Below, one piece after another: positions 6,073-24,392 of a stretch of 41,857 nucleotides of DNA; position 1 is the first letter of the stretch; the number at the start of each line of letters is the position of its first letter. The notes under the pieces are model-generated. The model did not search any database and had not been told where the DNA came from. It worked only from the letters and a program-made list of their open reading frames with translations. Origin of the DNA: a virus. Its lineage: Duplodnaviria; Caudoviricetes. The position numbers and the translations under genes were made by a program. The stretch lies in the IMG/VR virus record IMGVR_UViG_3300009678_000032, positions 1 through 41,857 of that record; one strand, written 5' to 3'.

Positions 6073-6276
6073 ATGACCAGCCCGATCGATCGCATCTACA
6101 TCTTCGCCCTCGACGTCGAGCACAACGAGAGCACCCGCGTCGAGATCGTCGGGGCCGGCGGCCTCAGCGACGTCCGCTACAGCGACTTTGAGACCCGCGA
6201 CGAGGCCATCGCCTACGCCGAGCGCGTCGGCGGCTACTACGGCGCCCAAGTGGTCGAGCTGGAGCCAGCACAATGA
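6073..6276 (+). CDS. small early hypothetical protein (67 aa)
   Basis: AGGAGAG RBS; MTSPIDRIYIF...FETRDEAIAYAE. Confidence 0.75.
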   Translation: MTSPIDRIYIFALDVEHNESTRVEIVGAGGLSDVRYSDFETRDEAIAYAERVGGYYGAQVVELEPAQ

Positions 6277-6280
6277 CCGA

Positions 6281-6330
6281 CGGCACCGGCCGGGCAAACC
6301 CGCTCTTGAGCGGCGCATCCGGCCGGGCCG
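6281..6330 (+). other. intergenic stem-loop (possible RNA processing or stability element)
   Basis: CGGC-A-CCGGCCGG/CCGGCCGG-GCCG outer stem; inner CCGCT-CTTG-AGCGG. Confidence 0.45.
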
Positions 6331-6355
6331 CCACCACCCACGGAGGACCACGAGA

Positions 6356-6529
6356 ATGATCAAGGTAACCGTAGCCGGCCACGCCATCCTGACTGGCAAG
6401 GGCGGCGAGCTCGATCGCGAGCCGATCTATCGCGACGACGAGCACGCCATCCGGGAGGCCGTGCAGACCCTTGCCGCGCGCTGCACCATCGAGTTTGGCG
6501 ACGTCATCACCATCGACGTCGCGTTCTGA
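6356..6529 (+). CDS. small early hypothetical protein (57 aa)
   Basis: GGAGG RBS; MIKVTVAGHAILTGKGG... Confidence 0.7.
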   Translation: MIKVTVAGHAILTGKGGELDREPIYRDDEHAIREAVQTLAARCTIEFGDVITIDVAF

Positions 6530-6562
6530 CCACCCACCACCCACTAACCTGGAGGCCACACC

Positions 6563-6877
6563 ATGCGTGCCGTCAAGACCAAGCCCCGCGCCCTGCCGTT
6601 CTCGGTCGCGGCTACCGTCGACGCCCTTGGCGTCGTCAAGAGCGAGATCGCCTCGCTCGAGGCCGATGAGCAGCGCCTGCGGGCCCTGCTGATCTCGGCC
6701 GGCCCGGGCTCCTACAACGGAGACCTGTACGATGCCTCGGTCGCGATCGCCGAGCGCAACACCCTGGACATGGAGGCGGTGCGTGCCAAGCTAAGCCCCC
6801 AGTTCATCGCCGCGCACACGCGCACCAAGACCGTCGACATCGTCAAGGTGACGGCGCGCAAGGGAGGCGGCAAGTGA
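6563..6877 (+). CDS. early hypothetical protein (104 aa)
   Basis: GGAGG RBS; VDALGVVKSEIASLEADE coiled coil; LDMEAVRAKLSPQFIAAHT. Confidence 0.8.
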   Translation: MRAVKTKPRALPFSVAATVDALGVVKSEIASLEADEQRLRALLISAGPGSYNGDLYDASVAIAERNTLDMEAVRAKLSPQFIAAHTRTKTVDIVKVTARKGGGK

Positions 6878-6972
6878 TCAATCACTCGTTCGCCGAGGAC
6901 GTGGGGGCGGTCGTCGCCCTCACGCTCTTCCTAGCCACGATCGCCGTCTGGGCGATCATCCTGGGAGGCTGA
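6874..6972 (+). CDS. 32-aa single-TM membrane peptide
   Basis: GGGAGG RBS, GTGA overlap; MINHSFAEDVGAVVALTLFLATIAVWAIILGG; absent from the ORF track. Confidence 0.65.
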   Translation: MINHSFAEDVGAVVALTLFLATIAVWAIILGG

Positions 6973-6974
6973 CC

Positions 6975-7187
6975 ATGGAGTTCCTGTTCATCATCGTCGT
7001 CCTGGGCGCTGTCCTCTGGGCCTGGGGTCGATCCAGCGGTATCTCGATCAAGAGCTTTCATCCAATCCGACCGTGGCGGCCCCTGACGCCACCATCAATC
7101 CCGCCTGACAGCCTACTCGAGCGGCTGGCGCCGATCGGCTTTGTCCTCATCGCTGGTCTCGCCTGGGCGATCGGGGTGCTGCCGTGA
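6975..7187 (+). CDS. small membrane protein, two hydrophobic segments (70 aa)
   Basis: GGAGG RBS; hydrophobic N- and C-termini. Confidence 0.7.
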   Translation: MEFLFIIVVLGAVLWAWGRSSGISIKSFHPIRPWRPLTPPSIPPDSLLERLAPIGFVLIAGLAWAIGVLP

Positions 7188-7327
7188 CCACCGTCACGAT
7201 CACGCTGGTCGTCATCAGCGGCATCCTGCTGCTGATCGGCGCCGGCGTGTTCGTCCTGATCTGCTGGCTCGAGCACGACCAGAACAACCGCGACTACCCA
7301 CCACGCAAAGACCCACCACCAAAGTAG
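7184..7327 (+). CDS. 47-aa single-TM membrane protein
   Basis: GTGA overlap; MTTVTITLVVISGILLLIGAGVFVLICWLEHDQNNRDYPPRKDPPPK; absent from the ORF track. Confidence 0.65.
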   Translation: MTTVTITLVVISGILLLIGAGVFVLICWLEHDQNNRDYPPRKDPPPK

Positions 7328-7336
7328 GAGGCCACA

Positions 7337-7519
7337 GTGCAACGCTACATCGTTGAGATCCTGCCCCGCGGCGAGCACGCTTGGTGCCGCAACGGGCTCA
7401 CCTTTGACAGCCAGAAGGCGGCCGAGGAGTATGCCACCGAGCTCATGGCTCGCTGGTTTGGTGCCAGCCGCTTTCGGATCGTGCCGGCGCCGGGAGGTTG
7501 CGATGGCTGTGCTGGCTAG
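7337..7519 (+). CDS. small early hypothetical protein (60 aa)
   Basis: AGGAGG RBS; WCRNGLTFDSQKAAEEYATELMARW. Confidence 0.75.
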   Translation: MQRYIVEILPRGEHAWCRNGLTFDSQKAAEEYATELMARWFGASRFRIVPAPGGCDGCAG

Positions 7520-7733
7520 TATCACCCCGCTCGGCGGTCTCACCAGCGCAGAGCCTGTGCTCTCCGCTGAGGACATCCGCCGGATCAGGCTCGAGCTGCA
7601 GGATCTCGTCGAGGCGATCGGTCCCCGTGACGCCATGGGGATCGTCAACCTCGACTACCAGCAGCGCCACCGGATCGAGGCCTTCATCGAGTGGCTCGAG
7701 GATGCCTTCGGGCCAAACGAGATGGATGAATAA
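7503..7733 (+). CDS. small early hypothetical protein (76 aa)
   Basis: GGGAGG RBS before ATG 7503. Confidence 0.7.
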   Translation: MAVLASITPLGGLTSAEPVLSAEDIRRIRLELQDLVEAIGPRDAMGIVNLDYQQRHRIEAFIEWLEDAFGPNEMDE

Positions 7734-15895: not shown

Positions 15896-16519
15896 TTACG
15901 CAGTCTCCGCTGCTTGCTGCCTCTTACGCCGACGCCACGACAACGCGCCGAGGCCAGCGAGGCCTGACGCAAACAACAGCACCGCCGGTGGGATCGGCAC
16001 CGCGGTCACGAATGGCGTGATGCCGTTGGTGACGCTGAGCGACTGCGAGATCAGGTCGTAGTTGTTCTTGAGACCAAGCCAGAACACCTTGAAGTGACTG
16101 TCGTAGTCATCCAGGGTGAACCCGCTCAGCAGCGAGATCGTGAACGCCAGCTGCAGCTGACTGTCAGCAGGTAGTGGTGGCGCCGTTGGATCGACGTCCT
16201 TGTTAAAGCAGAAGAAGTTGCCGCTGCCGTTGCAGCCACTGGAGTTCAAGCCGCCCAGCTCCAGGGTGTAGCCCGGAGCCGTTGCAGTCGAGAACCCCTG
16301 TGGTAGCGCCCACGCAAAACTCTCAACACCAAACCGACCACCCTCCAGATCGCCGGCACCGTTGATGCCGCTGATGGTTAGAAGGAATGACGCCTCACTG
16401 TGCTCGGCGTTGGTATAGGCGCCGGTCAGAACGTAATTGACGCCCTGGAACGTCGCAGCTTGCGCCGGCAACGCCGCCAGTAAACCAAGCCCCGCCAGGG
16501 CTCCTAAACACTTGCGCAT
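15896..16519 (-). CDS. secreted VPLPA/PEP-CTERM sorting-domain protein (207 aa)
   Basis: Signal peptide MRKCLGALAGLGLLAALPAQA; C-terminal AVPIPPAVLLFASGLAGLGALSWRRRK (motif, TM helix, basic cluster); GAGAGGAG RBS. Confidence 0.88.
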   Translation of the reverse strand: MRKCLGALAGLGLLAALPAQAATFQGVNYVLTGAYTNAEHSEASFLLTISGINGAGDLEGGRFGVESFAWALPQGFSTATAPGYTLELGGLNSSGCNGSGNFFCFNKDVDPTAPPLPADSQLQLAFTISLLSGFTLDDYDSHFKVFWLGLKNNYDLISQSLSVTNGITPFVTAVPIPPAVLLFASGLAGLGALSWRRRKRQQAAETA

Positions 16520-16609
16520 TGAACGTAGTCTCCTCTCGTGGTGCCATCCACCAGGGGCGACCACAGCAGATCACGGCACCGCTGGCAATCAATATTTGAT
16601 GGATTAGAT

Positions 16610-16708
16610 CCGTGCGCCGACAGCCTTGGACGCTAATATCAGCCAGCCATAATGAGGCCGGCCGGAGGGGACGCAGGCTGTCTTTCTGGGAGCAACCGAC
16701 CCGCACGG
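16610..16708 (-). ncRNA. candidate structured leader RNA upstream of the PEP-CTERM gene
   Basis: Nested stems CCGTGCG/CGCACGG, GACAGCCT/AGGCTGTC, CGGCCGGCC/GGCTGGCTG (G-U pairs only on the minus strand). Confidence 0.5.
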
Positions 16709-16733
16709 TAGCCGACTGGATGACCCCCTCCTC

Positions 16734-17159
16734 CTAGCGGGTGACGTGTTTAACCGCCCACATGACCGCTTCCTCGATCTTGGTCTTGGCCAGCGACATC
16801 TCGCGTGAGCTGCCGACCGTGTCGCAATACTCCAGGAGCTCCAGGCCCATGTCCTTGATCGATTGCATCTGAGTTTTCTCAGCGTCGGTCAACACCCGGT
16901 ACTGGTGCCGCATCGTGTTGTTGACTGTGCGCTCGTCGCTCGTTGACGGGACGCTCTTGCTCTGCTCGCTCATAGATCTCTCCTCTTGCAGCTGCTGCTT
17001 GCGATACCTGCGATAGGCCCCGCTGATAGCACTCTCGGTGTAGGGCACGCGACGCCGATCGAGCTCGGCGAGGTGGACGCCGATCTTGGCATACCCCCAG
17101 GTCGGGTTGAGCGCCTTACAGATCGCGATCCGCTCGCCGCTGATCTTCCCCTGCGCCAT
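16734..17159 (-). CDS. HTH-like domain fused to an Acb2/Tad1-like sponge domain; internal start at 16973 gives a 79-aa sponge-only form
   Basis: C-terminal HQYRVLTDAEKTQMQSIKDMG...SREMSLAKTKIEEAVMWAVKHVT; RBS GAGGA before 17159 and GAGGAG before 16973. Confidence 0.75.
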   Translation of the reverse strand: MAQGKISGERIAICKALNPTWGYAKIGVHLAELDRRRVPYTESAISGAYRRYRKQQLQEERSMSEQSKSVPSTSDERTVNNTMRHQYRVLTDAEKTQMQSIKDMGLELLEYCDTVGSSREMSLAKTKIEEAVMWAVKHVTR

Positions 17160-17168
17160 CGTGCGTCC

Positions 17169-17429
17169 TCAGATGATGTGCTTGCGCAAATCCCGCAGCG
17201 CCTGGGCGGGCGTGCGGCCGTCCTCCATCTTGTCGAGCGCCTTCTTTAAGCCCACCGCCTTCACCACCGCGCGCCAGTCCGGCGACAGCTGGTCGACCAG
17301 ATGCATCTTCCAGGCGCAGTCAGGATCCGGCGGCAGCCACTCCCCCGGCTCACCTGTCGCTATCTGCCGGCGGGGCCGGTACCTCCGCGACGAAGAACCC
17401 CGAGCCATCTGGGAGCCTCCTGGGCGCAT
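17169..17429 (-). CDS. hypothetical protein (start uncertain)
   Basis: Protein-like C-terminal half (VDQLSPDWRAVVKAVG); fills the gap between genes. Confidence 0.45.
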   Translation of the reverse strand: MRPGGSQMARGSSSRRYRPRRQIATGEPGEWLPPDPDCAWKMHLVDQLSPDWRAVVKAVGLKKALDKMEDGRTPAQALRDLRKHII

Positions 17430-17643
17430 CCTCAGGCCTCAGGTGATCGTGCATCGCCATCATGGCGTTGGCGAACCAGCTCACCATCCAGCCCTCGTCG
17501 ATCGGCAGGCCTTCGGGGCCCTTGTAGCCCAGCTTGGTGGCGATCTGACAGAACGCCGCGGCCCACTTGGCGGCGTCGACGCCGAGCAGGGCCGGGAGGT
17601 CGGGGCCAGGCATCGAGGTGTAGTCGGGATCGCTCACTTCCAT
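17350..17643 (-). CDS. conserved-looking phage hypothetical protein
   Basis: GGAGGAG RBS; DAAKWAAAF...IDEGWMVSWFANAM. Confidence 0.7.
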   Translation of the reverse strand: MEVSDPDYTSMPGPDLPALLGVDAAKWAAAFCQIATKLGYKGPEGLPIDEGWMVSWFANAMMAMHDHLRPEDAPRRLPDGSGFFVAEVPAPPADSDR

Positions 17644-17786
17644 CAGCGGTTCTCCTCCATGATCTTCTCGATCGCCAGCCACAGGTGTTCAAGGTCGGCC
17701 TCGCACGCCGCTCGGTAGTCACGCTCCTCCCGCAGCTCCTTGCGCAACCGCTCGACCTCGATCAGGCATTCAGCGAGATCAGTCAT
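17643..17786 (-). CDS. 47-aa coiled-coil hypothetical protein
   Basis: MTDLAECLIEVERLRKELREERDYRAACEADLEHLWLAIEKIMEENR; TGATG coupling; absent from the ORF track. Confidence 0.6.
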   Translation of the reverse strand: MTDLAECLIEVERLRKELREERDYRAACEADLEHLWLAIEKIMEENR

Positions 17787-18120
17787 CACGCTCTCGCAGC
17801 AAGCCATTCTCGTCGAGCTGCAGGTGATAGAACTTGCGCTCGATCAGCCGCTCGATGTCGGAGTTGAACTCCTCCTCGGTATAGGTCCACACCAGCTCCC
17901 AGTGCGGCAGCACCTGATTGCTCCAGTACCAGCACTTGCGGCCGTCGACGTTGCGCCAGCGCCAGCGCCGATCGCTGTTGCCTTCGATCGTGCGCTTGCC
18001 CGCGGCGCGGCCGTCGTCGGGATCCTTGCTGCATGGCACCGCATGAGCGTTGCCGGTCGTCATCAACACCACCAACAACGCGATGCAGGCGACCGCGGCG
18101 ACAACCATCATCCACGCCAC
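17779..18120 (-). CDS. putative exported protein with WRWRNVDGRKCWY motif (start approximate)
   Basis: Hydrophobic leader ending in AHA, then Cys...WRWRNVDGRKCWYW. Confidence 0.6.
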   Translation of the reverse strand: MAWMMVVAAVACIALLVVLMTTGNAHAVPCSKDPDDGRAAGKRTIEGNSDRRWRWRNVDGRKCWYWSNQVLPHWELVWTYTEEEFNSDIERLIERKFYHLQLDENGLLRERDD

Positions 18121-23837: not shown

Positions 23838-24392
23838 TCAAGCCGGCACCCCTTGTGGCTCCACCCCATCGAAGGCACCAGGGTTAGTACGCCAGGTGTG
23901 GTAGCGGCAGTAGGGCGGCATCTTCTGCGAGGTGATCTCGCCGCAGAACAGCGTCAGCGTGCCGTTGTGGCCGGTCGGAAATCGGCACTGGTCGGCGCCG
24001 ATATTCCATAGCGTCCAGCTGCCATGCGGCGTGATCTCGAACGACATGCGGCCGTGGCTGCCGGGCTCGGGATCCTTGGGAGGGGGTGGTAGCGATCGTT
24101 GCATCCGTGGCCTCACGAGTTGTGGCGCGGACGACCCGCGCATGTGCGTCAACTTCTTCGCCGGCGACGGGTTTGCGATCGTCGCCCTCTTCTGATGGAG
24201 CGGCTGGAGCGGCCGCGGTGGTGTCGAGGCCTTGCGCATCACGATGCCGTTGCGGTGCGCGATCCCCATGATCGCGGAGCGCGTCATACCCGGGAAGAAC
24301 GCTGTAGCGATCTGGCCAGCCGACATGGTCGAGGCGTGCTCGCGGATGATGGCAATCCGCTCGTCGCTCCAGAACGGCTTGGGCGCCATCAA
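23838..24392 (-). CDS. gcrA: GcrA-family cell-cycle transcription regulator
   Basis: WSDERI...MSAGQIA...TRSAIMGIAHR N-domain; QCRFPTG...FCG...PYCRYH C-domain. Confidence 0.88.
   Translation of the reverse strand: MMAPKPFWSDERIAIIREHASTMSAGQIATAFFPGMTRSAIMGIAHRNGIVMRKASTPPRPLQPLHQKRATIANPSPAKKLTHMRGSSAPQLVRPRMQRSLPPPPKDPEPGSHGRMSFEITPHGSWTLWNIGADQCRFPTGHNGTLTLFCGEITSQKMPPYCRYHTWRTNPGAFDGVEPQGVPA

Follow-up and report, generated by a model that had tools for sequence, protein, structure and literature searches.

A predicted Acb2-type sponge joined in frame to an HTH-like unit in a single phage lineage

Results

Genomic context of the sponge locus

We analysed a complete virus record (Duplodnaviria; Caudoviricetes; IMGVR_UViG_3300009678_000032) of 41,857 bases with direct terminal repeats, which is referred to as the window throughout. 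The window contains genes for a P22-like portal, terminase, major head protein, helicase, primase, RecT and endolysin, as well as a phage homologue of the cell-cycle regulator GcrA (23838-24389, minus strand; PF07750, E 3e-15), which points to an alphaproteobacterial host. The open reading frame (ORF) of interest, in which an HTH-like unit precedes a sponge, lies midway along a tightly packed series of minus-strand genes, with replication genes on one side and terminase genes on the other. A 45-codon gene ends 9 nt upstream of it, and a gap of 214 nt follows downstream. The close relatives of the sponge were found mostly in alphaproteobacterial genomes, and the host of the phage is therefore probably an alphaproteobacterium. 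Searches with the HTH homologue P0004, the HTH profile, the two upstream genes and the terminase retrieved no close phage relative.

Three other features of the window were recorded. The next gene after the sponge (15896-16519, minus strand) combines a signal-peptide-like start with a PEP-CTERM-like sorting tail, an odd cargo for a phage; the NCBIfam matches for the tail were weak and below cut-off (best E 3e-5). The 118 nt right behind the last codon of the sponge (16618-16735) were absent from one contig of run X3 and present in another, and they are able to form long hairpins (z just -1.5). Finally, seven small coding-like ORFs were clustered on the opposite strand within the head-gene region (6073-7733, plus strand), none with a Pfam or PHROG match; they are a possible accessory or anti-defence island.

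Domain organisation and start signals

The ORF (16734..17159, minus strand) is stop-free over 141 aa. This long form (P0001) corresponds to a called protein that forms a one-member cluster and was present on 2 contigs. The two RBS-ATG pairs reported for this single ORF in the preliminary description, at 17159 and 16973, were both located. The first start, Met1 (ATG 17159), is served by a GAGGA Shine-Dalgarno (SD) sequence (17166..17170, minus strand; -5.6 kcal/mol) that overlaps the TGA (17171-17169) ending the upstream 45-codon gene. The N-terminal 62 aa (16974..17159, minus strand) correspond to a small three-helix HTH-like unit of predicted function, described below from its codon bias, synonymous strain differences, stand-alone homologues (P0004 and P0006) and ESM Atlas look-alikes. 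Its last codons, the junction codons 58-62 (16974..16988, minus strand), carry an internal SD sequence, GAGGAG (16985-16980), and a 6-nt spacer that leads to the second start, Met63 (ATG 16973). The 79 aa from this start (short form, P0002; 16734..16973, minus strand) make up the predicted Acb2-type sponge, and both motifs quoted for them previously were present. Within the sponge, the PF24729 match covers a helical hairpin at residues 87-141 (16737..16901, minus strand) that includes Y87, K102, R119 and T126.

Pairing with the anti-SD was stronger for Met63 (-7.2 kcal/mol) than for Met1, both energies being computed with a generic anti-SD motif. An SD sequence as strong as that of Met63 was found at 9 out of 213 internal in-frame ATGs in the 34 called genes, against 12 out of the 34 called starts. 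The Met63 start region was also unusually unstructured (MFE z +1.26), with less structure than 184 out of 200 shuffles. We regard both starts as plausible, and the sponge is likely to be made alone from Met63 as well. It could be argued that only the long form is made and that the internal SD sequence is a relic of a once separate sponge gene, since translating ribosomes are able to mask internal starts and 9 of the 213 internal ATGs carry an equally strong signal by chance. We consider this very unlikely, given that the Met63 signal outperforms that of Met1, that it lies in an unusually unstructured stretch and that the itemised differences of a sister-strain contig (X4, see below) leave the SD sequence, spacer and ATG of Met63 untouched.

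An Acb2-type sponge in the C-terminal part

Residues 63-141 matched PF24729 with 72.5 bits, against a curated cut-off of 27 (E 3.2e-20). In a PDB profile search with a 36-row profile, Acb2_43 (9ptq, E 9e-4), T4 Vs.4 (E 1.3e-3) and PaMx33 Acb2 (E 0.048) came on top, and Tad1 was matched more weakly (E 0.07) through its C-terminal hairpin motif. The model of the short form (pLDDT 82.6) contained helices at 30-53 and 57-78 and no strands. When this model was used in Foldseek, ranks 1-9 were all Vs.4 and Acb2 chains (probability 0.93-1.00, with every E at or above 0.09), and the superposition on 8h2j gave an rmsd of 1.3 A over 78 columns. Model and Foldseek thus describe two long antiparallel helices, as in solved Acb2. 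Judged by sequence and model, the C-terminal part is an Acb2-type sponge and not Tad1, which narrows the Acb2/Tad1 membership proposed earlier. When the single-sequence model of the full-length protein was taken into a wide fold search, generic helical hairpins alone came back (best Z 8.0), and the N-terminal part was barely probed. The sponge also matched positions 207-282 of phrog_717, a PHROG family of 289 positions and unknown function; the match lies near the end of the family, and longer natural proteins ending in the sponge hairpin therefore exist.

Y87, K102, R119 and T126 align to Y11, K26, R67 and T74 of PaMx33 Acb2, of which the first two bind dinucleotides and the last two trinucleotides, according to the structural report (PMC10312549). 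The dinucleotide-pocket residues Y87 and K102 were invariant in 36 out of 36 aligned homologues, and the trinucleotide-pocket residues R119 and T126 were conserved in at least 90%, in a second-helix alignment that is weak alone (1.3 bits) and has a shorter kink region. The four published ligand residues are apparently kept in the sponge. The arm before the hairpin (S10-R22) was nearly invariant within the clade and was modelled at low confidence without ligand. The clade itself is very tight and includes relatives that are 60-78% identical, from alphaproteobacterial phages and prophages.

Compared with PaMx33 Acb2 (p26; PDB 8h2j, 8h2x, 8ixz) and T4 Vs.4 (7uq2), the sponge is alike in that an N-terminal arm leads into two long antiparallel helices, at ~17-24% identity. 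The loop between the helices is much shorter here, and the cA3-linked kink may therefore differ. Acb2 proteins known so far of this type occur unfused, whereas here a 62-aa HTH-like unit stands in front and a second start is present. Acb2_43, a Thoeris inhibitor of 76 aa, was the best PDB match, over the second helix; extra terminal beta-strands shape its 3'cADPR pocket (10.1101/2025.08.24.671296), whereas the sponge model is strandless and the sponge keeps the PaMx33-type Tyr and Lys. Tad1 (7uav, 8kbe) belongs to the same Pfam family and has the C-terminal hairpin motif in common, with ~42 of 116-131 residues aligned, but its chains are ~125 aa long and their remainder is without counterpart in the 79-aa short form. 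By analogy with Acb2, the sponge likely sequesters bacterial alarm nucleotides. Ligand specificity differs among members of the family and is not readable from sequence: 10 of the 46 Acb2 homologues assayed inhibited Thoeris (10.1101/2025.08.24.671296).

A rare coding unit in the N-terminal part

The N-terminal 62 aa are a real, rare coding unit. Their codon score was +0.52 in frame, against -0.87 and -0.70 in the two other same-strand frames, and was negative in all five other frames; GC3 was 0.82, and the in-frame codon bias was on par with that of the other genes. Contigs of X3 and X4 showed 5 listed differences in this part, 4 of them synonymous (P 0.011-0.023, from small numbers). When 1.84 billion representatives were scanned with phmmer, 3 matches emerged, among which 1 was a true homologue (P0004), and a profile search of proteins of 34-179 aa led us to accept 3 out of 21 candidates, namely P0004, P0001 itself and P0006. 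Fused proteins longer than this range were covered by the phmmer scan only. Two further candidates, P0003 and P0005, were rejected as repeat-driven chance matches. P0004 (102 aa) and P0006 (85 aa) are stand-alone proteins without PF24729 that end ~10-20 residues past the last helix. The alignment of the three proteins had 17 invariant columns out of 62, including W21, G22, G27, G47, R51 and Y52. Word-indexed protein searches retrieved the query alone (77-247 aa) or nothing (34-109 aa), 50,697 phage records contained nothing that matched P0006, and the HTH profile was absent from 401 + 5 bacterial genomes searched with no positive control.

The likeness to HTH proteins put forward in the preliminary description comes from the three-helix model and from ESM Atlas. 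The model placed helices at 8-16, 24-35 and 42 onward, with low confidence (pLDDT 35-55). The ESM Atlas neighbours were mostly HTH_32/homeodomain-like, with HTH_38 and GcrA also represented (TM by query 0.57-0.71; none reached the naming bar). No named HTH family was matched in Pfam, PHROG, NCBIfam or PDB sequences with a profile whose sensitivity is low because the family has 3 members only, and the same small family gave an hhalign probability of 0.8% against the phage's own GcrA. By predicted structure, then, the N-terminal part looks HTH-like. The stretch from the last HTH helix to Y87 of the sponge comprises ~25 residues and is poorly ordered in the models. Prediction of a complex between the HTH and two copies of the sponge gave no answer (score 0.00).

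The join in a sister strain

We detected the join in a contig from a different study (X4 contig 23), which is 97% identical and covers 16802-17569 without gaps and at 22 differences. No stop was found among the 19 out of 22 differences that are itemised. The re-assembly of run X1, the possible source run, was identical across the whole stretch. Among the listed X3 contigs none covered 16973-17017, and none of X2 covered the join. No RNA data set was listed as containing the stretch. Because the frame stays open through the join in this 97%-identical contig of a separate study (19 of 22 differences itemised), the join is probably not an assembly slip.

An artefact, whether from faulty assembly or because the open frame before an ordinary sponge gene is non-coding, is in our judgement highly improbable. 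The identical re-assembly and the gap-free contig argue against the former, and the ordinary codon bias and the two true homologues with their invariant columns against the latter. Such an explanation could appeal to the non-itemised X4 differences and to the lack of a family match for the N-terminal part. It could also appeal to the open frames of at least 60 codons that precede the sponge at 18 out of 138 homologue loci, a frequency that makes an upstream open frame alone mean little.

Codons 61-62 of the junction are the rarest Arg and Ser codons of the genome (AGA, 1.7% of Arg; TCT, 2.5% of Ser), the codon usage to be expected of a sequence shaped as an RBS spacer. Among codons 54-62, 7 are one base from a stop, a weak count because a single step separates TAG from many GC-rich codons (CAG, GAG, AAG). 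A lost ATGA overlap through a one-base indel was considered as the origin of the join: a TGA does overlap the Met63 ATG (ORF 16970-17092), yet this frame scores non-coding, and the candidate was set aside. Loss of such an overlap by an indel and point loss of a stop cannot be told apart.

Distribution of the join among sponge homologues

The homologue survey comprised 138 loci: of 255 viral loci the best 80 were taken, and of the genome loci all 58. L081-L083 were left out; L082 proved, in a scan that covered 14 of 64 parts, to be the sequence of the window itself, carried on a contig of 41,875 bases. The N-terminal HTH was found at none of these 138 loci (best 80 of 255 viral plus 58 genome), fused or adjacent, within flanks of 1.5-2.5 kb (best E 2.3), and tblastn with the N-terminal part at E up to 1 gave no match in the 80 viral loci. 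A start codon lay within 12 codons of the Met63 position at 123 out of 124 assessable loci, 97 of these with an SD sequence. Coding-like extensions upstream of the sponge were detected at 2 out of 133 loci, which carry one sequence twice (L005 and L086). The four phage records found all matched residues 65-140 only. The join was thus found in this phage lineage only.

Three loci were rejected as sponge fusions: L081 and L142 lie within unrelated long ORFs, and L011, with a reported match to residues 6-140, has a stop 7 codons ahead of its sponge start. Other in-frame joins were observed. The extension at L005 (2375-2779) and L086 is a coding-like stretch of 59 codons at the N-terminus, of the same sequence in both and unrelated to the HTH. 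At L009 (2495-3187) and L037 (2495-3223), both on the plus strand, the sponge runs stop-free into a hydrophobic C-terminal domain of 155-167 aa; the tails resemble each other weakly (35% over 75 aa, E 0.028), have no family match and may represent a membrane-anchored sponge at two divergent loci. From these joins at the N-end (L005/L086) and the C-end (L009/L037), it follows that the sponge gains neighbours now and then.

We found no description of an Acb2-HTH fusion or of a two-start sponge in a literature search that included few subscription papers. PF24729 genes have been described as separate cassettes between gp53 and gp52 (10.64898/2026.10.05.756390). We conclude that the sponge is of a known kind, in an arrangement that is undescribed but lineage-confined.

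Discussion

Sponge domains can work while fused. The study of Acb4-Tad2, Tad2-Sequestin and Sequestin-Acb4 (10.1101/2025.07.12.664507) describes functional fusions of this type, and sponge-sponge fusions are recurrent there (60 and 91 instances), whereas the fusion of the window was found in one lineage and with a predicted DNA-binding partner. A closer likeness in design is AcrIIA15, in which an N-terminal DNA-binding domain and a C-terminal anti-defence domain share one chain; autoregulation has been shown for it, and its N-terminal domain binds its own promoter via an HTH motif (PMC10901769).

Following this precedent, the long form could be a selected fusion of regulator and inhibitor that acts independently of ligand: it would repress its own or a neighbouring promoter, the oligomer would present several HTHs, and the output of the sponge would be capped. 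A motive exists, because sponges trigger Panoptes, which is activated by Acb2 sequestration (PMC13712596), and capping would then be useful. The join also appears to be common to the 97%-identical strain, and the HTH looks conserved there. Against this, the stretch 16300-18000 has no convincing operator-like intergenic palindrome and no sigma-70-type promoter, in a scan that alphaproteobacterial phage promoters may escape, and the ORF sits amid closely spaced genes. The HTH did not recur at the sponge loci surveyed; acr and aca genes are linked, unlike the HTH and the sponge here. With no operator, promoter or recurrence, we consider such a regulator unlikely.

The preliminary description suggested that the long isoform could couple immune-signal binding to DNA binding. 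Once a nucleotide occupied the pocket beside it, the N-terminal arm would take on a different order and would thereby switch DNA binding by the HTH, so that transcription would be tuned to the immune signal. The dinucleotide pocket of PaMx33 Acb2 is indeed built from the N-terminal parts of two protomers (PMC10312549), and the near-invariant arm S10-R22 of the sponge, modelled at low confidence without ligand, is in line with such a switch. The same source describes a protein that is rigid on binding, with an RMSD of 0.22-0.30 A between apo and ligand-bound states and with two pocket types that are not allosterically linked (PMC10312549). In the long form, moreover, ~25 residues separate the last HTH helix from Y87, with a poorly ordered linker of ~20 residues, and the join is confined to one lineage, its HTH homologues being stand-alone and the fusion present at none of the 138 loci (best 80 of 255 viral plus 58 genome). 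A ligand-coupled sensor therefore appears most improbable, and the coupling originally proposed is not borne out.

We favour, with somewhat better than even confidence, a lineage-specific join without a stop that yields free sponge and a tolerated HTH-sponge long form. Two neighbouring genes would have lost the intervening stop in this phage lineage, giving the in-frame ORF. Translation from Met63 would produce free sponge, which may assemble as an Acb2-like hexamer and, by analogy, trap CBASS cyclic di- and trinucleotides and possibly the Thoeris signal 3'cADPR. Translation from Met1 would produce the HTH-sponge, here the sole route to an HTH product. The HTH would extend on a flexible linker from a rigid oligomer and keep its former job, probably the binding of phage DNA, with ligand or not; the join would be tolerated rather than serve as a signalling device. 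Our preference for a ligand-independent passenger comes from the published rigidity of Acb2 on ligand binding and from the lack of allosteric coupling between its pockets.

The preliminary description had named the loss of a stop between two genes as its alternative, and it fits best, with one amendment: the join is not a one-off but appears to be common to a strain ~3% divergent, in which the HTH looks conserved. This also counts against the tolerated-passenger reading. The outcome that would have refuted that description is seen in one half: the homologues encode the sponge separately, but the contigs show no stop here. The phage-relative, HTH-profile and bacterial-genome searches turned up no close relative that keeps the two genes apart, and the stop-loss origin and its age are therefore inferred. 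The long form may nevertheless be selected as such, since 4 of the 5 differences in the N-terminal part are synonymous although this part can only be made fused. A selected DNA-binding sponge, in which mixed hexamers of short and HTH-bearing subunits would regulate the sponge or late genes and might be read out by the occupancy of the N-terminal pocket, seems to us quite unlikely.

If this last reading were true, a sponge for immune signals would serve the phage as the scaffold of a transcription factor, and the two starts would set the ratio of its subunits. If the long form were a regulator, it would tie phage counter-defence to the control of transcription, much as happens for anti-CRISPRs through Aca and AcrIIA15, and it would hint at how a phage limits its sponge in the face of sponge-sensing systems such as Panoptes. 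If, on the other hand, the tolerated join that we favour is true, it would matter little: it would add a predicted member to a tight Acb2 clade and indicate that the sponge tolerates N- or C-terminal passengers. It would also be a caution for the discovery of sponges through guilt by fusion, given that a join in one lineage says little about the partner.
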